From Bacteroidales bacterium (GTDB taxonomy: Bacteria > Bacteroidota > Bacteroidia > Bacteroidales > UBA932): DNA of 64,000 nucleotides. The stretch is taken from assembly GCA_016290385.1 (NCBI GenBank), contig JAEETO010000001.1, positions 18,956 to 82,955 on the forward strand, written 5' to 3'. The translations under genes were made by a program, and so were the position numbers. Positions 35,133-46,513 of this stretch are shown here, one piece after another; the first letter of the stretch is position 1, and every line of letters begins with the position of its first letter. A model generated the notes under the pieces. The model had not been told where the DNA came from. It did no database searches and saw only the letters and a program-made list of their open reading frames with translations.

Positions 35133-36254
35133 ATGATCGAAATCAAAGAAGTCACCACGCGCCGCCAGCAACGGGAATTCCTGGAATTCCCGCTCAGGCT
35201 CTACAAGGGCAATCCCTGGTTCGTCCCGCCCTTCTACGCCGACGAGAAGAAGATGTTCCGGAAGGACTACGTCTACTCGGACTGTTGCCAGTGGATCTGC
35301 TACAATGCCTATAAGGACGGCAGCATGGCCGGCCGCATCCAGGGCATCATCCAGGTAGCTGCCAACGAGAAGAACGGAGAGCGCCGCGCCCGTTTCAACC
35401 GCTTTGACGCCATTGACGACCCGGAAGTTTCACGAGCTTTGTTCGGGGCCGTCGAGCGCTGGGCCCGCGACAAAGGCATGGACACGGTCTGCGGCCCGCT
35501 GAGTTTCTCCGACCTGGAACGCGAAGGCCTGCTGATCGAAGGCTTCGACCAGCCCCAGACTTTTGAAGAGCAGTACAACGCCTCTTACTATCAGCAGCAT
35601 ATCGAGCAACTGGGCTACACCAAGGAGGTCGACTGGCTGGAATGGCGCCTCCGTGCACCCGAAACCGACGAAGAAGACCTCGACAAGCTCACGGACTTCA
35701 TCTTCCGCCGCTACAAGCTGCATTTCGGGCCCTCTAAGAATGCCAAAGACTTCCTGGCCCGATACCAGGACGGCATCTTCCGGCTGCTCGACCAGTCGTA
35801 CGAAGGCCTGTATGGCACGGTGCCTTTCACCGAAGGCATGAAGAAGCTCATGGTCGACAATTTCCGCCTGGTCATCGACCCGAAATACACGGCCGTCATC
35901 CTCGACGAGAACGATCGCATGGTGTGTTTCGGTTTCGCCATTCCGAGCCTGGCGTCCGCACTTGTCGGGACGAAGGGAAAATACACCCCGCGGGTGCTCA
36001 TGCGCCTGCTGCGCAACATCCGCCATCCCAAGGTCATCGACCTGTGCCTGATCGGCGTGGACCCGGAATACCTCAACCGTGGCGTTTCGGCCGCCTTCGC
36101 TTCGGCCATCCTGCACATGCTCCGCGACACCGACGTGGAATACGCCGAGACCAACCTCAACCTCGAAGACAACTACGCCATCCTCAACCTGTGGCGCCGC
36201 TTCGATTCCGTTCAGGCGAAGCGCCGCCGCGCCTATGTGAAGAGACTCGCATGA
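35133..36254 (+). CDS. GNAT-fold-like uncharacterised protein
   Basis: The N-terminal block EFLEFPLRLYKGNPWFVPPFYADEKKMF is seen in a conserved family usually annotated as N-acetyltransferase. ATGA overlap with plsX. Confidence 0.45.
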   Translation: MIEIKEVTTRRQQREFLEFPLRLYKGNPWFVPPFYADEKKMFRKDYVYSDCCQWICYNAYKDGSMAGRIQGIIQVAANEKNGERRARFNRFDAIDDPEVSRALFGAVERWARDKGMDTVCGPLSFSDLEREGLLIEGFDQPQTFEEQYNASYYQQHIEQLGYTKEVDWLEWRLRAPETDEEDLDKLTDFIFRRYKLHFGPSKNAKDFLARYQDGIFRLLDQSYEGLYGTVPFTEGMKKLMVDNFRLVIDPKYTAVILDENDRMVCFGFAIPSLASALVGTKGKYTPRVLMRLLRNIRHPKVIDLCLIGVDPEYLNRGVSAAFASAILHMLRDTDVEYAETNLNLEDNYAILNLWRRFDSVQAKRRRAYVKRLA

Positions 36255-38166: not shown

Positions 38167-39006
38167 ATGTCAGAAATCGATCCCTATTGGAATAGAGCCC
38201 AGGGCCTGTCGTCCCAGTTCGTGTTCAGTATCCAGAAAGTAGAACGCCGGGGTTTCTACGATGTCTCCGACATCCCCCAGGCCTCGTTGCCCATCTTTAC
38301 CTTCGCGTACCTGACTGAAGGAGAAATCCTCATAGAAATCGAAGGGACGACCCTCCTTTGCAAGGCGAACCAGGTTTTGCTGATACCGGCCAGGACGCCT
38401 TTCCGCATCTTGTATTTCAAGGGAAACTCCGGTTACGAATGTGGCTTTTCGATGCGCGCGCTGAAGGATCCCTCCTATCCGTGCCTGCAAAGCCAGCAGC
38501 CCCAGCTGATATCCTTCTCGGAGAAAGACGCCCTTTTCACCACCATACTGCTGGATGAGCTCCTGACAGCATTCCAGAACGACAACCGGCAAGTTGCAGC
38601 CAGTTCGCTCGACTTGTTCCTGTGCCGCCTCGCCACGCCTGACACGCATCCGGTCAGCCCCATCGTAAACCATTTTCTGGAGATGGTCTTCGACCGTGAG
38701 CGCAAGCCGGGAAAAGTCACCGCTTATGCCGATGAACTCTGTATCACGCCCAATTACCTGAACAGGCTGGTCCGTGCACAGACAGGGCACTCCGCCATGG
38801 ACTGGATCGAAATCTCCCGCCTGAACCTGGCCAAACTGCTGCTCCGGCAGAACAAGTTGCAGATTGCAGAAATCGCTGCCGCTACCGGCATCGACGACCA
38901 GTCGTACTTCACACGCTTCTTCAAGAAAAACGAAGGCTGCACCCCGACACAGTACCGTGACAAGGCCTTGATTGGCATGATTAATCCTGATATTGCCGAC
39001 CGCTAA
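38167..39006 (+). CDS. AraC-family transcriptional regulator
   Basis: Cupin-like N-terminal domain plus the C-terminal double HTH (YADELCITPNYLNRLV...IAEIAAATGIDDQSYFTRFFKK). Confidence 0.8.
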   Translation: MSEIDPYWNRAQGLSSQFVFSIQKVERRGFYDVSDIPQASLPIFTFAYLTEGEILIEIEGTTLLCKANQVLLIPARTPFRILYFKGNSGYECGFSMRALKDPSYPCLQSQQPQLISFSEKDALFTTILLDELLTAFQNDNRQVAASSLDLFLCRLATPDTHPVSPIVNHFLEMVFDRERKPGKVTAYADELCITPNYLNRLVRAQTGHSAMDWIEISRLNLAKLLLRQNKLQIAEIAAATGIDDQSYFTRFFKKNEGCTPTQYRDKALIGMINPDIADR

Positions 39007-39746
39007 GCGAAAAGGATCTCAACACAGAACGAGGACCGGTCACCCACCCGGCCTTCCACCACCCAGCCACCTTCTACCGGCGCACGGAAGATTTCAACGG
39101 TCTCGCCGGCATAAACTTCCTTGTTGAAATTGATCCGGACTGAACGGACACGGCGTGTGGACACTTCCGTATAATCGAGGCAGTCCATGGCCCATACCAC
39201 GTAACGGGCGTTGTTGGCATGTCCCACCAGGTCGATGTCGGAATATCCGATGCGGTGCTCCGCCATCTCTTCAATGGGGCCTTCCGGCATCACCACCTTG
39301 CCGCAAGGCTCATCGATGGCGCTTTCCGCACATTCCGTATCGAGCGGCAGGCGCTCGGCCAGGTGTTCGCGCCGCAGCAGGCGCCGGGATGTGGTGTCGA
39401 TGATCAGCCAGGAAGACGTGGCCAGCACGGCCGGATTCCCCGCCGCATCGAGCATACGGAAATCGCGCACGTAAAAGGGTCCTTCGAAACCCTTGTGCCA
39501 GGTCTGCAGTTCGACGGCCTCACGCCAGCGTGGCATGGCAGGAAACTCCATGTGCATGCGCGACAGCACCCAGGCCGTCCCGAAACGCTCCAAATCCTCA
39601 AAGCCGAAACCGAGCGAGCGGGCCGAAACATACGCAATCTCCTGGGCCATGTCCATAAAGGACCCCGGCTTGAGATAGTGGGCCACATCAGTGGCGAAGC
39701 AGGGCACTGTGAGCCGCTGGATGGTTTTCTTGTCGTTGGTATCCAT
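39003..39746 (-). CDS. Acyl-ACP thioesterase
   Basis: Double hot-dog layout. ATG 39746 (MDTNDKK...) chosen because the ORF-track extension to 40127 overlaps the kinase-AAA gene. Confidence 0.7.
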   Translation of the reverse strand: MDTNDKKTIQRLTVPCFATDVAHYLKPGSFMDMAQEIAYVSARSLGFGFEDLERFGTAWVLSRMHMEFPAMPRWREAVELQTWHKGFEGPFYVRDFRMLDAAGNPAVLATSSWLIIDTTSRRLLRREHLAERLPLDTECAESAIDEPCGKVVMPEGPIEEMAEHRIGYSDIDLVGHANNARYVVWAMDCLDYTEVSTRRVRSVRINFNKEVYAGETVEIFRAPVEGGWVVEGRVGDRSSFCVEILFA

Positions 39747-39757
39747 GATCCGGGATA

Positions 39758-41509
39758 TTAATGATAGCCGATGGGCTGGCGGACGGATTTCTTCCCCAGC
39801 GAAGAGGGATTGCAGCGGATTGAATCTTCGAGGTGGCGCTGCGCGATGGGTTCGTCGGCCAGAGCGGCCACCAGTGCCGCATCGTTGGCGATGAAAGCGA
39901 TATCCGAAGAGGCGTAGCCATCGGTCAGCGCAGCGAGCCGGTCGAAATCGATGTCGTCGGCCAGCGGACGGCCTTTGAGATGATGGATGAACATCTGGCG
40001 GCGGGTCTCCGGCTCCGGGGCCGGCACTTCCACCTGCAGGTCGAGACGCCCCTTCCGCAGGACGGCCGGGTCGATCATGTCCATCCGGTTGGTGGTGCCG
40101 ATGACGAAAATGCCCCGCTGCGCACAATTGTTGAGCTGCGAGAGGAATTCGTTGACTTCCTCCGGACGATGCCGGGCTGCCTCGCTGCCGCGCGCAGGGA
40201 CAAAGGAGTCGAACTCGTCAAAACAGAGCACGGTGGGTGCCTTGGCCGCTGCTTCCTGGAAGAGCGCGGCAATCTTGCCCTGTGTGCCGTGAATGTAGGT
40301 GCTGCCCAGGTCCGAGCCATTGACCACCATGTAGTTGAAGCGCGACTCCTCGGCGAATTTTTCGGCGAAATAGGTCTTTCCGCAGCCCGGCGGGCCGTAG
40401 AGCAGCATGCCGTTGGGCGGAAGGAGCCGGTATTTCTTCGCTTTTTCACGATCGCGCAGTACCCAGATCACACGCTCGGTCAGCATCTTTTTCAGCGATT
40501 CCATGCCGGCCACGTCGGCAAAGCCGCCACTGCGTGTATTGCGTTGCAGGGTCTTCTTCATCTCGGTGCCGTCGGTCGTGGCGACCAGGCCGCCGGCGGA
40601 GGCCTTCTTGGGATTGCCGTTGCGGGAACTGCCGTCCGAGCGCTGCCGAGTATCGACACTGGAATCCGTCAGCATTTCCAGCATCCGGGCCGGTGTCGGA
40701 CGGGCGGAGGGATTGATATTCAGGCCCATCAACACGAGACTTCGCAACATGGGGTCGCTGGCATGAAGGGCGGCAGGCCACACGGGCTGCCGGCGCCGTG
40801 CCTCCAGAATCCGTGCCTTCCGTTCCTCAAAAGATTCACTCTCATCCATGTGCAGGCCCCAGGGCTCCTGCCGGCAGATCAGGGTATAGACCAGCGCCGC
40901 TACGGAAAAAGCATCGCTTGCATCCGAGAAACAGCCGTCCAGCGCTTCGGGTGCCGTATAGATCAGGTTCAGGTCTTCCATCGGGAAGGGCGGCTGTCCG
41001 CCAGTGAGCTCGTGCGAAGCATGGCCCAGATCGATGAGCTTGGGAACCAGGCCGTCACCCGATTCTTCCAGGAGAATGTTGCGTGGGGTGATGTCGTTGT
41101 GAAACAAGCCTTCGCTGCGGAGATAGGCCAGTCCTTCCAGCACATGGCAGGTGATGGTCTTGATTTCAGGACCTGTGAACTGGCGTCCGGCAGCCAGGAA
41201 TTCCGACAGGAGGGAGCCCTTGAAATATTGCATCACCAGATACGGATACGTCTTATCCTGTATCGTCAGCACCCCGTCGGCGACATACGAGATGACGTTG
41301 TGGTGCGACAGGCCGCGGCTGTTGACGATTTCCCCGACCTCTCCTCCGTCGAGCCATTCCGGCGGGATGGCCTGAAGGTCGAACAGCTTCAGGAAAAAAC
41401 GGCCGCCTTTGCCGTCGGCCACCACGTAGTTGCTGTTGAAGACCCCGTCCTTGATGAAACGTTCTACGCGGTAGGGACCGACAAGAGCATCATTTTCCAA
41501 GCGGATCAT
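39758..41509 (-). CDS. Ser/Thr protein kinase - classical AAA+ ATPase fusion protein
   Basis: Kinase core: K in FFLKLF, HNDITPRN, DLG, TAPE. AAA module: Walker A GPPGCGKT, Walker B LCFDEFD, SRH TTNRMDMIDPAVLRKGRLD. First ATG at 41509. A TTG at 41518 directly abuts the upstream stop. Confidence 0.8.
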   Translation of the reverse strand: MIRLENDALVGPYRVERFIKDGVFNSNYVVADGKGGRFFLKLFDLQAIPPEWLDGGEVGEIVNSRGLSHHNVISYVADGVLTIQDKTYPYLVMQYFKGSLLSEFLAAGRQFTGPEIKTITCHVLEGLAYLRSEGLFHNDITPRNILLEESGDGLVPKLIDLGHASHELTGGQPPFPMEDLNLIYTAPEALDGCFSDASDAFSVAALVYTLICRQEPWGLHMDESESFEERKARILEARRRQPVWPAALHASDPMLRSLVLMGLNINPSARPTPARMLEMLTDSSVDTRQRSDGSSRNGNPKKASAGGLVATTDGTEMKKTLQRNTRSGGFADVAGMESLKKMLTERVIWVLRDREKAKKYRLLPPNGMLLYGPPGCGKTYFAEKFAEESRFNYMVVNGSDLGSTYIHGTQGKIAALFQEAAAKAPTVLCFDEFDSFVPARGSEAARHRPEEVNEFLSQLNNCAQRGIFVIGTTNRMDMIDPAVLRKGRLDLQVEVPAPEPETRRQMFIHHLKGRPLADDIDFDRLAALTDGYASSDIAFIANDAALVAALADEPIAQRHLEDSIRCNPSSLGKKSVRQPIGYH

Positions 41510-41518
41510 ACCTGTCAA

Positions 41519-41944
41519 CTATTTGAGTTCAGCCTCTACGTTGATGGATGTCGTGTAAAAAGCCCATTGCTTGATCTCCATGCGCGAGAAGAAGGTCTTG
41601 AGCTGCGGCACGGCGTCGAGGTTCAGCACGGCGCGGCCTCCGGAGAATTCTTCCACCAGGCCGGCGGGCAGTTTTTCCAGGATACGTTTCGCAGCAAAAT
41701 CGAGGGCCATGTTGCCGGCAGCGCCGGCCTTGACCTGAAGCACGGCATGCGGCGGGTTGAAGTCCACCAGCTGCACGTCGGCCGAGACCGTGTGCGTGAC
41801 AGGCTTGTTGATGATCGGAAGGGAAATCGTGGCGTCGTAACTGAGTGTCAGGGTATCCGAATCCTTATACCGTATGCCGATGGTCTGTCCGCTTTTTTCG
41901 CGGATCAGGCGGATCAGTTCGTCGTAGGAAGTTGAAAGAATCAT
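41519..41944 (-). CDS. Hypothetical 141-aa protein, first gene of the kinase-AAA operon
   Basis: ATG 41944 (MILSTSYDEL...). No signal peptide, TM helix or motif recognised. TAAATTTG box at 41965-41972. The stop TAG directly abuts the next ORF. Confidence 0.55.
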   Translation of the reverse strand: MILSTSYDELIRLIREKSGQTIGIRYKDSDTLTLSYDATISLPIINKPVTHTVSADVQLVDFNPPHAVLQVKAGAAGNMALDFAAKRILEKLPAGLVEEFSGGRAVLNLDAVPQLKTFFSRMEIKQWAFYTTSINVEAELK

Positions 41945-41964
41945 GGCTCTCGTCAATTTTTTCT

Positions 41965-41972
41965 CAAATTTA
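41965..41972 (-). promoter_or_regulatory. -7 promoter box (TAAATTTG) for the 141-aa ORF / kinase-AAA operon
   Basis: The plus strand reads CAAATTTA. 20 nt upstream of ATG 41944. Confidence 0.45.
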
Positions 41973-41985
41973 ACGATTGTTTCAC

Positions 41986-41993
41986 TATTTTTG
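41986..41993 (+). promoter_or_regulatory. -7 promoter box (TATTTTTG) for the DUF3108-like gene
   Basis: 36 nt upstream of ATG 42030. Confidence 0.4.
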
Positions 41994-42029
41994 CAAGGTA
42001 GGGACGATTATTTCGCCTCCGGACGGACC

Positions 42030-42734
42030 ATGACCATGAAACGACTTGCGACAATCCTGTTAATCCTGCTGGCAGCCAGTCTCCAGGCACAGTCTTTCTC
42101 CTTCCAGGAAGAGACCCTGGACTATTCCATCCGTCACAATTTGTTCCCGGGCACCATTGGCAGCATGACCTATCATACCCATGACGCGGGCAGCCACTGG
42201 CAGGTCGATGCCACGCTCCAGGCTGCCGTGGGCAGCATCTATACGCTGGACTGCAGCTACGGCTCCATATTCTGCAAGGACGCGGACCTGACACCTGTCT
42301 CCGCCACCCGCAGCCAGACCGAAAAGAAATACTGGGCCAAAGGACGCTATGACTGGTCGGCTCCGGGACAGGTCCACATGGACGTAACCAAGAGCTCCCG
42401 GCCACCCCGCGACGAGACTTTGTCATGGGCCGGAACGGTGCGCGACCTGCTGGGCATGATCTGGTGGCTCCGCACGCTCGACTACGACCAGCCGGGGCTG
42501 AATCCCGGTCCGAACGCCCTGCTGCTCGACCATGACGCCCTGCCGGTGTCCATCTCTTCCTGCCAGAAGAAAACCATCAAGTTCAACGGCCTGCAAGTTC
42601 CCGTCATCGAGGTCATCGTGGCCCAGGACGGCAAGGAGGCCCTGCGCCTGACCCTCACCGACGACGCTCTCCGCAAACCCTTGCGCTTCTCCATCGGCCT
42701 GTCGTTCGGCACGATCAAAGGGACGTTGAAGTAA
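42030..42734 (+). CDS. Secreted DUF3108-like protein
   Basis: Signal peptide MKRLATILLILLAASLQAQS (ATG 42030 or 42036). Beta-rich. The DUF3108 call is from memory of the family pattern only. Confidence 0.45.
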   Translation: MTMKRLATILLILLAASLQAQSFSFQEETLDYSIRHNLFPGTIGSMTYHTHDAGSHWQVDATLQAAVGSIYTLDCSYGSIFCKDADLTPVSATRSQTEKKYWAKGRYDWSAPGQVHMDVTKSSRPPRDETLSWAGTVRDLLGMIWWLRTLDYDQPGLNPGPNALLLDHDALPVSISSCQKKTIKFNGLQVPVIEVIVAQDGKEALRLTLTDDALRKPLRFSIGLSFGTIKGTLK

Positions 42735-42749
42735 CGTATCGAAGTATCC

Positions 42750-44273
42750 ATGCCCCTCTCCCCCATCATCCGTATTCCGTTTAACATCCGCGCCCAGAAG
42801 CTGGAGCGGGATGTGCAGCAGGGGGAGGTGCAGCAGAGGGAGGTGCTGGCGCGACTGGTGCGGACGGCACGGGACACTGAGTTTGGAAAGGCGCATGGCT
42901 TTGCCGGCATCCACGACTACGAGGCATTCGCCCGGTTGGTGCCGGTCAACAGCTACGAGGACCTGAAGGAGGCCATCGACCGCATGCGGCACGGGGAGCG
43001 CGACCTGCTCTGGCCGGGACGCGTGAAATGGTTTGCCAAGTCGTCGGGCACGACCAACGACAAGTCTAAATTCATCCCTGTCAGTGACGCCGGACTGCAC
43101 GACACCCATTACCGGGGAGGCTTCGACACCGTGGCCTTCTATGTGAAAAACAACCCGAAGACCCGCATGTTCGACGGGAAAGGTCTCATCCTGGGTGGCA
43201 GCCACGCCCCGAACTATAATGTAGCCGGATCGATCGTGGGCGACCTGAGCGCCATCCTGATCGAAAACATCAACCCGCTCGTCAACCGGCTCCGCGTGCC
43301 GGCAAAGGAGACGGCGCTGCTTTCCGATTTCGAGACCAAGCGCGATCGCATTGCCCGCGAGACCCTGCACCAGAACGTTACCAACTTCAGCGGCGTGCCT
43401 TCCTGGATGCTCTCGGTGCTGCACCGGGTGCTCGAACTCGCCGGCAAGGACAAACTCGACGACGTGTGGCCCAACCTGGAAGTTTTCATGCACGGCGGCG
43501 TGGCATTCACGCCCTACCGCAAGCAATACGAGCACATCATCACCCTGCCGGACATGCACTACATGGAAACCTACAACGCCAGCGAAGGCTTCTTCGGCAT
43601 CCAGGACGACCCGAACGACCCGGCCCTGCGCCTGATGACGGACTACGGGGTGTTCTATGAGTTCATCCCGATGGACGAATTCGGTCGGGAAAACCCGACG
43701 GTCGTGCCGGTCGGGGGCGTGGAGACCGGACGCAACTACGCCATGGTGATCTCCACCAGCTGCGGCCTGTGGCGCTACCTGATCGGCGACACCGTTCGTT
43801 TTACCTCAACCCGACCCTACAAATTCGTCATTACCGGCCGCACCCGGCACTTCATCAATGCTTTTGGTGAAGAACTCATCGTCGACAATGCAGAAAAGGG
43901 CCTCGCCTGGGCATGCCGGGAGACCGACGCCAGCGTTCTGGAATACACGGCCGCCCCCGTTTTCATGGATGGGAAAGCCCGCTGCCGCCACCAGTGGCTG
44001 ATCGAATTCTCCCGTCCACCCGCCGACCCGGCCCGCTTCGCCAGCCTGCTCGACCACAAATTGCAGGAAATCAACAGCGACTACGAAGCCAAGCGCTTCA
44101 AGGACATCACGCTCCAGGAGCTCGAACTGGTGCAGGCCAGGCCTGGGCTTTTCCACGAATGGATGAAGCAGCGCGGCAAGCTTGGCGGACAGAACAAAGT
44201 CCCGCGCCTGAGCAACAACCGCGATTACATCGAACCGCTGCTGGCTCTCAACAGTACCTCTAAAGGAATTTAA
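42750..44273 (+). CDS. GH3-family (acyl-acid amido synthetase-like, adenylate-forming) protein, copy 1
   Basis: FAKSSGTTNDKSKFIPV adenylation motif, YNASEGFFG and YEFIP blocks, as in GH3 auxin-responsive-promoter family proteins. Confidence 0.75.
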   Translation: MPLSPIIRIPFNIRAQKLERDVQQGEVQQREVLARLVRTARDTEFGKAHGFAGIHDYEAFARLVPVNSYEDLKEAIDRMRHGERDLLWPGRVKWFAKSSGTTNDKSKFIPVSDAGLHDTHYRGGFDTVAFYVKNNPKTRMFDGKGLILGGSHAPNYNVAGSIVGDLSAILIENINPLVNRLRVPAKETALLSDFETKRDRIARETLHQNVTNFSGVPSWMLSVLHRVLELAGKDKLDDVWPNLEVFMHGGVAFTPYRKQYEHIITLPDMHYMETYNASEGFFGIQDDPNDPALRLMTDYGVFYEFIPMDEFGRENPTVVPVGGVETGRNYAMVISTSCGLWRYLIGDTVRFTSTRPYKFVITGRTRHFINAFGEELIVDNAEKGLAWACRETDASVLEYTAAPVFMDGKARCRHQWLIEFSRPPADPARFASLLDHKLQEINSDYEAKRFKDITLQELELVQARPGLFHEWMKQRGKLGGQNKVPRLSNNRDYIEPLLALNSTSKGI

Positions 44274-44943
44274 CGAAACCCCGGACGATAAAAAAAGCGC
44301 CGAATACGACCAGGCCGATGCCGATCGCCCGATTCAATAATTGCAGACGCCGGGGATTGAAGAAACGCTGAAGGGAGGTGGCCGCCTTGGCCTTGAGAAG
44401 ATCGCAGCCAAAACTCGTGGCCAGGGTGATGGCGAAAAAGAGCAAGGTCTGGGCCTTGTTCCCTTCGAAATTTCCGGAAGCAACGGCCACGGCACTCAGC
44501 CAGAACAACAGTACAAAAGGATTCAGGATATTGAGAAAGAAGCCCTTGCCAAAAAACACGAACCAGCTCGGCGCTTTTTCGGGATTGGGCAGCTTACCGC
44601 CAGACTCCTCCATGGCCTTCATGCGATCCAACATCTGCTTGTAGGCATCGTCCCCACCCCGTTTGAAATAGGTATACAACCCGAAAAGGATCAGAATGAT
44701 GCCGGCACCGATGCTGAACAGGAACATTTCCCGGTCGTTTTCGGCCACCAGCCGGATGGATGTCAGCACGCAGAGCGACACGATCATCATGTCGCAGAAC
44801 AGGACACCGAGCGCCAGCCAGGCCGCGCAGCGGAAGCCCCGGTCGATACTGGTCTGCAGGAGGGTAAAAAAAGCCGGACCGAATCCGAAGACCAGCGCCA
44901 GCGTCAGGCCGAAGACGACCGCATCGAAAAACAACTTGCCCAT
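44260..44943 (-). CDS. LysE/RhtB-type amino-acid exporter
   Basis: Six-helix protein with the N-terminal block FGLTLALVFGFGPAFFTLLQTSI. ATG 44943 overlaps the TGA of the upstream GH3 gene (TGATG). Confidence 0.65.
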   Translation of the reverse strand: MGKLFFDAVVFGLTLALVFGFGPAFFTLLQTSIDRGFRCAAWLALGVLFCDMMIVSLCVLTSIRLVAENDREMFLFSIGAGIILILFGLYTYFKRGGDDAYKQMLDRMKAMEESGGKLPNPEKAPSWFVFFGKGFFLNILNPFVLLFWLSAVAVASGNFEGNKAQTLLFFAITLATSFGCDLLKAKAATSLQRFFNPRRLQLLNRAIGIGLVVFGAFFIVRGFVKFL

Positions 44944-46493
44944 CACTTCAGAGACGCTATATAGTCCTTCCAAAGAGCGTATCGTTGTCCCTTGAGCACA
45001 CGCGGAAACTTGGTAGCCCCACCCCACTTGCCAATCTTCTCTTCCATGAATTTGTAGAACACATGCGTGGGCAGCACGTCGAGATAGAGCTCACGGATGG
45101 CCTCGGTGCGCTCCACGGCATAGTCATCGTTGAGCTGGCAGAGATAACTGTCGATCTTGCGGATGGCTTCCTGTGGATCGATGGCTTCGTCGCTGCCCAG
45201 ATACCAGTGGTGCGCGTACATCGTACCGTACTCCTCGCCTGCCACGGTGAATTCCGTGATATTCACGCCGAGCTCTTCGGAGAGCATTTCCACCGCCCGG
45301 GTGATGTTGTCCTGCGAGAGATGTTCGCCGGTGATGCTCAGGAACTGTTTGGTGCGGCCTGTGATGACAATGTCACAGGTTTCCTTGTCCAGAAAACGGA
45401 TGGTATCGCCAATCAGGTAGCGCCAGGTGCCCGCACAGGTGGAAAGCAGCAGGGCATAATCGACACCCTCCCGGACTTCCGACAGGGTCAGGGTCTCGGG
45501 CTGGGCCACAATATCTCCGTTGTCGTTGAAATTCATCTCGTTGAAAGGCACGAATTCGAAGTAGATGCCGTTGTCGACCAGTAGCTGCATCACGCGTCGC
45601 TTGAGGTCGACCTGGTAAGCGATGTAGCCTTCGGATGCCAGGTAGCTTTCCACAAAGATGACCTCTTTCCCGAAAATGCGTTCGAAACTCTTCTCATAGG
45701 GAGCGAAGGCCACGCCGCTATGGACATATACCCGCAGGTTCGGCCACAGGTCGTGGATAGTATTGAGGTGGTATTCCTTGATGATGCGCTCCAGCAGGAT
45801 CTGGACCCAGGCAGGCACACCAACCACAACGCCGATATCCCATTTCGGGGCAGCCTTGACCATCTCGTCAAGTTTCTCCGACCAGTCCTTGATCTTGGAA
45901 ATCCGCTGGCCCGGCTTGTAAAAGAACTCGAACCACTTAGGGATGCGGCTGGCCGAGATGCCCGAAAGGTCGCCCGCATAGTAACCGCCGGCCCGGCTGT
46001 ACGACAGCTCCGTGCTGCCGCCGATCATCAGGACGCCCTTATTGTAGAACTCGGCCGGGAAGTCATAGCGTACGGCAGAAACCAGTTGCCGGATGCTCGC
46101 TTTCGTGATGGAGGCGTTCAGCGCCCGGGTGATGGGGATGTACTTGCTGGAAGCCTCGGACGTGCCGCTGCTCAGGGCAAAGTACTTGACCCGCCCCGGC
46201 CAGCTGACGTTGTGCTCCCCGTTGAGTGAACGGTACCACCACTGGTCGTGCATCTTGTTGTAATCAAAGACAGGCACCCTACGGCGGAAAGACTCCACCA
46301 TGTTGCCGGAACGCAGGATCTCGGAAAAATGGTAGGTCCGGCCGAATTCGGTATCCTTGGCCTTCCGCAGCAGTTTCTTCAATTCTTTCTGCTGCGCTTT
46401 CACGGGTTTCACGCGTCGCTGTTTGCGCTCCACCGGAATGTTTTTCAATTCGGCGGCCGCCTTGATGATGGTTCCTAACAAGGGTACGGGCAT
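44943..46493 (-). CDS. GH3-family protein, copy 2
   Basis: FALSSGTSEASSKYIPI, YLASEGYIAYQ and YFEFVP blocks. ATG 46493 (MPVPLLG..., parallel to the MPLSPII... start of copy 1) preferred over TTG 46505. Confidence 0.75.
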   Translation of the reverse strand: MPVPLLGTIIKAAAELKNIPVERKQRRVKPVKAQQKELKKLLRKAKDTEFGRTYHFSEILRSGNMVESFRRRVPVFDYNKMHDQWWYRSLNGEHNVSWPGRVKYFALSSGTSEASSKYIPITRALNASITKASIRQLVSAVRYDFPAEFYNKGVLMIGGSTELSYSRAGGYYAGDLSGISASRIPKWFEFFYKPGQRISKIKDWSEKLDEMVKAAPKWDIGVVVGVPAWVQILLERIIKEYHLNTIHDLWPNLRVYVHSGVAFAPYEKSFERIFGKEVIFVESYLASEGYIAYQVDLKRRVMQLLVDNGIYFEFVPFNEMNFNDNGDIVAQPETLTLSEVREGVDYALLLSTCAGTWRYLIGDTIRFLDKETCDIVITGRTKQFLSITGEHLSQDNITRAVEMLSEELGVNITEFTVAGEEYGTMYAHHWYLGSDEAIDPQEAIRKIDSYLCQLNDDYAVERTEAIRELYLDVLPTHVFYKFMEEKIGKWGGATKFPRVLKGQRYALWKDYIASLK

Positions 46494-46513
46494 GGTCTGG
46501 TTCAATTATCGCG

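Follow-up and report, generated by a model that had tools for sequence, protein, structure and literature searches.

Classical AAA unfoldases take their specificity from N-terminal domains, and p97, PAN and FtsH each carry a substrate- or adaptor-binding domain at that position. Phosphorylation that directly gates unfolding or degradation in bacteria is, to our knowledge, otherwise known only in trans, from the McsB–ClpC system. There, in Gram-positive bacteria, a kinase is coupled to an AAA+ unfoldase (McsB–ClpC, or McsB–ClpC–ClpP), and phosphorylation selects the clients, as one preprint describes it (bioRxiv 10.1101/2022.09.15.508104). Here, we ask what should be made of a gene in which kinase and AAA module are one polypeptide. 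The gene lies in a stretch of 64,000 nucleotides from a Bacteroidales bacterium (contig JAEETO010000001.1, positions 18,956 to 82,955), which at its full length we call the window, and its product joins an N-terminal Hanks-type Ser/Thr kinase to a single classical AAA module. This kinase–AAA fusion is a real, conserved and previously undescribed architecture.

How far do the described systems reach? With the CDC48/p97/VAT, PAN/Mpa and FtsH enzymes the fusion shares Walker A and B, sensor-1, a second region of homology (SRH) with two arginines, an aromatic-hydrophobic pore loop and a lid. Unlike CDC48, PAN and FtsH, it has one AAA ring and no CDC48_N, coiled-coil/OB (CC-OB), transmembrane or M41 domain, and its NCBIfam scores fall four- to fivefold below the cut-offs of those families. 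Each was tried as an identity for the fusion, the first two to be rejected and the third improbable on its scores: CDC48/p97 (TIGR01243) at a score of 175 versus 802, with a single AAA module and a kinase at the N terminus; FtsH (TIGR01241) at 160 versus 600, the AAA region alone aligning and Pfam finding no peptidase domain; and PAN/Mpa at 110–149 versus about 500–750, with no CC-OB domain. The Clp/Hsp100 partners of ClpP were set aside as well, because the module of the fusion is of the classical clade and not of HCLR, and because its IGF-like tripeptide sits in a C-terminal tail and not in an internal loop. Two defense systems fared no better: IetAS (IteA model) scored 91.4 versus 510, with no IetS subtilase or protease partner in the window, and MAD6 of MADS scored 80 versus 460, with no methylation or restriction neighbors of that system. 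The likeness to IetA, MAD6, PD-T4-6 and Stk-type proteins is one of domains only, and no single model covers both halves of the fusion. With scores far under the CDC48, FtsH, PAN, IteA and MAD6 cut-offs, the fusion appears to be a member of none of them.

On the kinase side, PknB-type enzymes resemble the fusion in having a complete bilobal fold (template-modeling [TM] score of 0.75–0.79 to PknB) and all catalytic residues. The fusion departs from PknB in its non-RD HND motif, its degenerate Gly-rich loop, an invariant K20 and N25, the lack of a transmembrane segment or PASTA domains and the AAA ring that lies C-terminal to the kinase. If one looks to function rather than to descent, McsB–ClpC would, we infer, be the closest analogy. 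It differs in that its components are separate proteins, in that McsB has a phosphagen-kinase fold and makes phospho-arginine and in that ClpC is a two-ring Hsp100 protein of another AAA+ clade, whereas the fusion covalently joins a Hanks Ser/Thr kinase to a single classical AAA ring.

The gene occupies 39758–41509 on the minus strand and encodes 583 amino acids (aa) plus a stop, as defined from the list of open reading frames (ORFs) and Pfam. An in-frame TTG at 41518 offers an alternative start (39758–41518, minus strand), but we place the start at ATG 41509 because the homologs uniformly begin M-I/T-R-L and because the public gene call is exactly the 583-aa ATG form. That ATG lies 9 nucleotides (nt) after the TAG (41519–41521) of an upstream 141-aa ORF, which settles a start that had been left anywhere from 0 to 10 nt after this stop codon. 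Both domains that had been read by eye from the longer ORF, a Hanks kinase and a complete classical AAA module, were found by Pfam, and every motif named for them was present (FFLKLF, HNDITPRN, DLG, TAPE, GPPGCGKT, LCFDEFD and TTNRMDMIDPAVLRKGRLD).

Could the joining of the two halves be an accident of assembly? The best 120 matches in a homology search were all 539–598 aa long, all Pkinase plus AAA and 54–94% identical. A kinase-domain alignment, scanned against a single genome for each GTDB species, picked up 80 Bacteroidales loci (loci are cited below by their L numbers), among whose labels are Prevotella/Xylanibacter, Muribaculaceae, Alistipes/Tidjanibacter, Rikenellaceae, Millionella, Paludibacteraceae and Porphyromonadaceae. 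Wherever the gene is complete in these 80 species genomes, it encodes kinase and AAA module as one protein; only contig ends and one copy that is probably disrupted depart from this. Misassembly of two separate genes is thus rejected, the fused gene being present in more than 75 independent assemblies, and the fusion is genuine. The disrupted copy is that of the cultured isolate Millionella massiliensis Marseille-P3215T (L041:8001–9733), where the kinase region is broken into two overlapping ORFs of 233 and 312 aa, probably through a frameshift or as a pseudogene.

An exhaustive search with the kinase domain across 1.84 billion representatives pointed to a family of modest size: 25 proteins reached E ≤ 1e-30, and a few dozen representatives whose match begins at residue 1 measure about 570–615 aa, every scanned one of them having Pkinase plus AAA. 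The family is conserved among Bacteroidales of gut and rumen, has a cultured representative in Prevotella sp. P5-108 (L075) and forms subclusters that are taxonomically coherent where labels exist. A full-length copy, 38% identical, is found on plasmid pHALHY02 of Haliscomenobacter hydrossis (Saprospiria). Public records name the ATPase half only ("AAA family ATPase" or "transitional endoplasmic reticulum ATPase"), an annotation that is corrected here. A literature search found no published description of a kinase–AAA fusion, and no entry in the PDB spans both halves, in keeping with the earlier statement that no characterized bacterial protein fusing the two was known to its author; neither did we find an earlier description of a catalytically intact-looking kinase at the N-domain position of a classical AAA protein.

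The kinase domain covers residues 1–281 in ATG numbering (40667–41509, minus strand), and it belongs to the Hanks-type (eukaryotic-like) Ser/Thr superfamily by profile and by bilobal fold. Pfam Pkinase matches residues 61–281 (E 5.7e-28; 98.5 bits versus a cut-off of 31.7). The AlphaFold2 (AF2) model has a mean predicted local distance difference test score (pLDDT) of 91.4 and a predicted TM score (pTM) of 0.89, and Foldseek matches it to PknB, DCLK1, AMPK and ULK1 at TM scores of 0.72–0.79. Its key residues are K20, K41 (beta3), E60 (alphaC), H137-N138-D139, N144, D160-L-G and A186-P-E. Across an alignment of 77 family members that spans about 30–94% identity, K41, the HND aspartate (D139), the PRN asparagine (N144) and D160 are at least 98% conserved and E60 at least 90%. 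The catalytic loop reads HND rather than HRD, which makes this a non-RD kinase. The Gly-rich loop reads IKDGVFNSNY, with one Gly only and no GxGxxG, and K20, N25 and Y28 are invariant across the family in place of the Gly-rich consensus. To judge from these residues, the kinase half looks active.

Between the two halves lies a low-complexity linker rich in Ser, Thr, Arg, Gly and Lys (40529–40666, minus strand; about residues 282–327), which has no conserved columns across the family and spans the distance from the end of the kinase model to the start of the AAA module as aligned with p97. Its length had been put at roughly 70 aa; about 45–50 aa is the better figure, the conserved N-terminal AAA helix GGFADVAGM beginning at about residue 328. 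The single classical AAA module with its lid follows (39845–40528, minus strand; about residues 328–555), with Walker A GPPGCGKT at 40373–40396 and Walker B LCFDEFD at 40208–40228 (both minus strand), pore-loop-1 T-Y-I-H-G, sensor-1 TTN and an SRH with two arginines (R485 and R488). Pfam AAA (PF00004) matches residues 371–499 (E 2.9e-33; 115.6 bits versus a cut-off of 21.2), and AAA_lid_3 matches below threshold. Aligned end to end with the D2 module of p97/CDC48 (E about 1e-80), the module places T-Y-I-H-G at pore-loop-1. In the same 77 members, conservation is at least 98% for Walker A, Walker B, the sensor-1 Asn and the two arginines of the SRH and at least 70% for the pore-loop Tyr. By these marks, the AAA half reads as a single classical-clade ring module and looks active, and it would probably form a hexameric ring that threads substrate at the expense of ATP.

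One further feature had escaped the initial annotation. The C-terminal extension (39761–39844, minus strand) ends in RQPIGYH, and a tail of the form [KR]-x-[IV]-G-[FY], 0–8 residues from the C terminus, is found in 77 of the 77 aligned members and in the Haliscomenobacter homolog. The window protein itself ends in IGYH, with a penultimate Tyr, and, since in the family [IV]G[FY] stands 0–8 residues from the end, the tail is not a strict HbYX motif.

What does the fusion keep company with? When the flanking ORFs of all loci were clustered, with clades defined at 55% identity, one recurrent neighbor emerged: an ORF of about 126 aa (cluster c1) immediately 3′ of the fusion on the same strand, separated from it by roughly 5–80 nt in most loci, found at 43 of the 75 loci that could be assessed and represented in 9 of the 11 clades. 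Two of its members (P0198 and P0201) score above the Pfam cut-offs for YbjN (PF10722) and for TY-Chap1 (PF22551), the latter named "T3SS (YopN, CesT) and YbjN peptide-binding chaperone 1." TY-Chap1 was defined as a family of peptide-binding chaperones, and the TY-Chap families were defined in antiviral ADP-ribose systems (PMC9503650). The TY-Chap1-family gene is a conserved, family-wide partner of the fusion. When all six frames of the 64 kb were searched with hmmsearch, no c1 gene turned up in the window; L004 and L017, which fall in the same 55% clade as the window, retain it, and so the window's subclade has lost c1 from the position beside the fusion.

Other neighbors recur less widely. 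A TerB-like protein of 480–500 aa lies directly 3′ of the fusion in L057 and L070, and in L034, L035, L037 and L047 a TerB-like gene has next to it a second TY-Chap paralog and an ORF resembling P-type ATPases (the ATPase recognized by eye). In L034 (3356–10143), as also in L035, L037 and L047, the order is a TY-Chap paralog, a TerB-like protein of 478 aa, an ORF of about 916 aa, the fusion and a second TY-Chap; the TerB-like start in L034 overlaps the preceding stop, and the ORF of about 916 aa carries DKTGTLT by eye and resembles P-type cation ATPases. Together with the RyR-domain genes described below, these P-type ATPase-like neighbors hint at a candidate link to metal or Ca2+ handling. 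HtpG is encoded near the fusion in L055, L068 and L085, a second kinase gene directly 3′ of it in L039, L040, L041 and L048 and ClpP 10–13 nt 3′ of it in eight loci of one clade (L018, L019, L020 and L024–L028), whose fusion proteins end in IGFDN, IGFDS, IGFNN or IGFDSY. On the Haliscomenobacter plasmid (L091:5422–10312; NC_015512.1, 11174–16064), an 842-aa Hsp70-family protein, the kinase–AAA homolog (catalytic loop HNE, tail RPKIGFKP) and a TerB-family protein are encoded in this order, back to back with the BREX genes brxL and pglZ; the Hsp70-family protein is atypical. Taken as a whole, the flanks are heterogeneous and mostly housekeeping (126 proteins in 114 Pfam families), and the location of the fusion gene varies even among close relatives.

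We propose, with about an even chance of being right, that the fusion is a phosphorylation-coupled protein unfoldase or remodeler that serves a chaperone-type stress or conflict response. The single AAA module would assemble into a hexameric ring that threads substrate, a supposition made because Walker A and B, sensor-1, the arginine fingers and the Tyr-Ile pore loop are intact. An active non-RD kinase would occupy the N-terminal position, tethered by a disordered linker of about 45 aa, so that six kinase heads above the pore could capture and phosphorylate clients, or their own linker, and thereby gate unfolding or direct it. The enzyme would in most lineages act with the TY-Chap1-type peptide-binding chaperone encoded directly 3′, and often, it seems, in the company of TerB-like, Hsp70/Hsp90 or ClpP genes; the invariant [KR]-x-[IV]-G-[FY] tail would be a likely docking peptide for a partner, whether a peptidase ring or a chaperone. 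In the window's lineage, the adjacent chaperone gene has been lost, and the fusion borders a gene slot of variable content. The role would most likely be an accessory response of the chaperone type, to stress or conflict, and not control of the adjacent lipid genes. Speaking for proteostasis are the chaperone and protease neighbors, the housekeeping flanks and the native composition (the G+C content of the fusion gene is 0.60–0.62, the same as its surroundings, in line with the earlier impression of a native codon composition). Hexamer formation, threading, kinase activity, docking by the tail and the biological role are all putative. The most ambitious form of the idea, that one polypeptide writes a phospho-mark on a client, threads it through its own ring and docks onto a peptidase or chaperone by its IGF-like tail, with TY-Chap1 as adaptor in Bacteroidota, would be a self-contained "mark-and-unfold" machine and a new regulatory logic for bacterial AAA proteins; it strikes us as improbable in its entirety.

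Several observations weigh against this proposal. The window's own lineage lacks an adjacent TY-Chap1 gene, conflict-type genes surround the fusion in the window's subclade and each of the proteostasis neighbors is confined to one or two clades and so may amount to one chance synteny. The ClpP gene beside the fusion resembles an ordinary housekeeping copy (by eye, the next ORFs are hisC/hisB-like and not clpX), and the known ClpP partners are of a different AAA+ clade and carry their IGF motif on an internal loop, not on a C-terminal tail. In the kinase half, the degenerate Gly-rich loop could mean that ATP binding or catalysis is atypical, and the Haliscomenobacter copy has HNE instead of HND in its catalytic loop.

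The most substantial competitor is a system of the antiphage or abortive-infection type, in which the AAA ring would sense or remodel a protein of the invader, the kinase would act as effector by phosphorylating host or phage targets and the TY-Chap1, TerB or Hsp70-like proteins would be sensors or adaptors. We regard this as a minority prospect that deserves to be taken seriously, and a defense or conflict role has partial support. Speaking for such a role are the Haliscomenobacter copy, which lies on a plasmid between Hsp70-family (atypical) and TerB genes and by BREX; the second kinase genes directly 3′ in four loci; the antiviral context in which the TY-Chap families were defined (PMC9503650); and the TIR/CHAT cassette, the slot of the window's subclade elsewhere holding TIR, PEGA, trypsin-like, kinase and CHAT genes. 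PADLOC also matches the two halves at the level of domains (the AAA half to IetA at E 7.5e-28 and the kinase half to mad6 at E 4.6e-33 and to PD-T4-6), and the gene moves about even between close relatives. Against it, whole-protein scores stay far under the cut-offs already given for IteA and MAD6, and a defense-island context was rejected on the PADLOC and Pfam tallies of the 126 flanking proteins, which are mostly housekeeping: only about nine match PADLOC at E ≤ 1e-10 (PDC-M16B four times, PD-T4-6 three times, dGTPase once and CARF once). A phage origin was likewise rejected, there being no real homolog in 50,697 phage records, and the native composition and coherent subclusters argue in the same direction. 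One might instead imagine a degradation machine: the kinase would tag a client with a phospho-degron, the ring would unfold it and the IGF-like tails would dock the ring onto ClpP. This would be a one-polypeptide analogue of McsB–ClpC–ClpP, for which the McsB–ClpC preprint offers a precedent of a kinase as adaptor for an AAA+ unfoldase/protease (bioRxiv 10.1101/2022.09.15.508104). The universal [IV]-G-[FY] after basic residues at the C terminus and the clpP gene 10–13 nt 3′ of the fusion in eight species genomes speak for such a machine, but we hold it to be unlikely: the clpP adjacency falls in one clade and counts as one event, the distance from the tail to the C terminus varies from 0 to 8 residues and the window has no clpP nearby. 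Moreover, we know of no classical-clade AAA protein that partners with ClpP. Finally, the kinase half could be a pseudokinase or a nucleotide-sensing scaffold that serves the unfoldase as a substrate-binding N-domain, as the family-wide degeneration of the Gly-rich loop and the HNE of one distant member might suggest; the near-invariance of the beta3 Lys, the alphaC Glu, the catalytic Asp, the Asn and the DxG Asp in the 77 members is not what one expects of a dead domain, and we think this explanation doubtful.

Two further explanations begin from what lies next door in the window. The first takes the 141-aa ORF (41519–41944, minus strand) and the fusion for an obligate two-gene system, as the initial annotation did when it offered the two as a candidate module. 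The ORF deserves the attention: it is a real conserved protein, a soluble alpha/beta protein and lineage-specific island gene with 69 homologs that are mostly exactly 141 aa long and 52–94% identical, and its AF2 model is well folded (pLDDT 84, pTM 0.72). It was rightly called unrecognizable, being an orphan by profile and by fold, with nothing in Pfam, NCBIfam, PADLOC or PHROGs (Pfam staying blank at E ≤ 1 for all 63 members) and nothing significant in Foldseek (best E 0.16 in the PDB and 0.06 in BFVD, TM score ≤ 0.33). In the window, the ORF is probably cotranscribed with the fusion; the gap is 9 nt, with a single –7 box upstream, and the same tight adjacency recurs in L006, L011, L013 and L014. 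A hidden Markov model of the family, however, places the ORF no more than 8 kb from the fusion in just 6 of the 80 species genomes (L006 and L011–L015), to which L001 and the window itself may be added. Every one of these loci falls in the window's own subclade, and relatives that are just as close (L007–L010 and L016, kinase domains 57–77% identical) have the fusion without it. Other genes split the pair, a 676-aa RyR-domain gene in L001 and L012 and TIR and PEGA genes in L015, and the ORF occurs without the fusion, alone among housekeeping genes in L088–L090 and in a cassette in L092. Nor is it the family-wide partner in another place: a relocated homolog of c1 was rejected (hhalign probability 0.1), as was a YbjN/TY-Chap1 identity, with the same hhalign value, no Pfam match and no T3SS chaperone among the Foldseek matches. 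The 141-aa ORF is a local neighbor, not a general partner of the fusion; it is not conserved beside it, the proposed module fails on that count and an obligate pair is quite unlikely. The second explanation makes the fusion a regulator of the neighboring lipid genes, and it is the least credible of all, a long shot by any measure. The acyl-ACP (acyl carrier protein) thioesterase gene (39003–39746, minus strand), which had been identified by eye, does carry both Pfam domains, Acyl-ACP_TE and Acyl-ACP_TE_C; it begins 11 nt past the fusion stop and is probably cotranscribed with the fusion. The lipid genes that had been said to surround the fusion were verified in the window (acyl-ACP thioesterase, PlsX, ACP and acyltransferases), and the same arrangement is seen in L001 and L011–L015. 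That part of the earlier suggestion stands. The regulation does not follow, because this neighborhood is limited to one subclade: a thioesterase comes after the fusion only there, unrelated neighbors take its place elsewhere and in L092 the thioesterase is in place although the fusion is absent, which makes it a flank of the slot rather than a partner of the fusion. All told, the interpretation given in the initial annotation is partly supported.

Why should a phosphorylation-coupled unfoldase be worth pursuing? If its kinase and its unfoldase are coupled, the family would show phosphorylation directly gating unfolding or degradation in bacteria. The family can also be put to the test, as it has a cultured member, a defined small partner in TY-Chap1 and a short conserved tail motif, such that a few point mutants should suffice. 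The adjacent 141-aa orphan, for its part, is reassigned from the fusion to a variable slot of TIR/CHAT type.

That slot is best seen in L092 (4686–18287, the same as L086/L087; metagenome scaffold LIUQ22-1_SAMN18817940 scaffold_54), where the space between the Acetyltransf_5/Acyltransf_2 genes and the thioesterase is filled by a 10-gene, same-strand cassette without the kinase–AAA fusion. In order, its first five genes encode a TIR protein of 315 aa, a PEGA protein of 776 aa, x676, a 146-aa homolog of the small ORF and x523, and its last five a trypsin-like protein of 441 aa, a Pkinase of 273 aa, x210, a TPR-CHAT protein of 744 aa and x421; start and stop codons overlap in several cases, and five of the genes have no Pfam family. 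The cassette looks like an undescribed conflict-type system. Since the slot can hold a cassette that lacks the fusion, it is a variable island, of which the 141-aa ORF is the most constant cargo, the thioesterase (present as a flank in L001, L011–L015 and L092) the conserved border and the window a minimal version. The 676-aa protein that stands between the small ORF and the fusion in L001 (3646–5941) and L012 (5643–7950) has a C-terminal RyR domain and shares 57% identity with the x676 protein from L092, and an opposite-strand ORF of 106–113 aa, itself with an RyR domain (E 4.9e-30), overlaps the 3′ end of its gene.

Upstream of the pair of genes in the window, the –7 box that had been noted is present as TAAATTTG at 41965–41972 on the minus strand, 21 nt 5′ of the small ORF's ATG and in agreement with the Bacteroidetes –7 promoter consensus TAnnTTTG. 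It is the sole TAnnTTTG on the minus strand across 38900–42200; the whole window holds 37 matches on both strands, so that a chance match near the fusion is not unlikely, and TAAATTTG is best called a putative promoter element. Terminator-like matches were no more numerous than in shuffled sequence, the sigma-70 promoter and terminator scan being uninformative for Bacteroidetes, and Rfam found no structured RNAs in the window.

A 700-aa ORF at 39833–41935 on the plus strand, which runs antisense to the entire fusion gene, is not a gene but a shadow ORF of the kind typical for high-GC coding sequence, and the same effect leads to miscalls in several GC-rich loci (L018–L028). Directly 5′ of plsX in the window, a 373-aa ORF (35133–36254, plus strand) has no Pfam family, and a 375-aa gene without a Pfam match takes the same position in L001. 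Relative to L001, the window also carries an inserted trio between the DUF3108 gene and the Acyltransf_2 gene (42750–46505), made up of two divergent paralogs of the GH3 family (acyl-acid amido synthetase-like; 42750–44273, plus strand, and 44943–46505, minus strand) on either side of a LysE-type exporter (44260–44958, minus strand).

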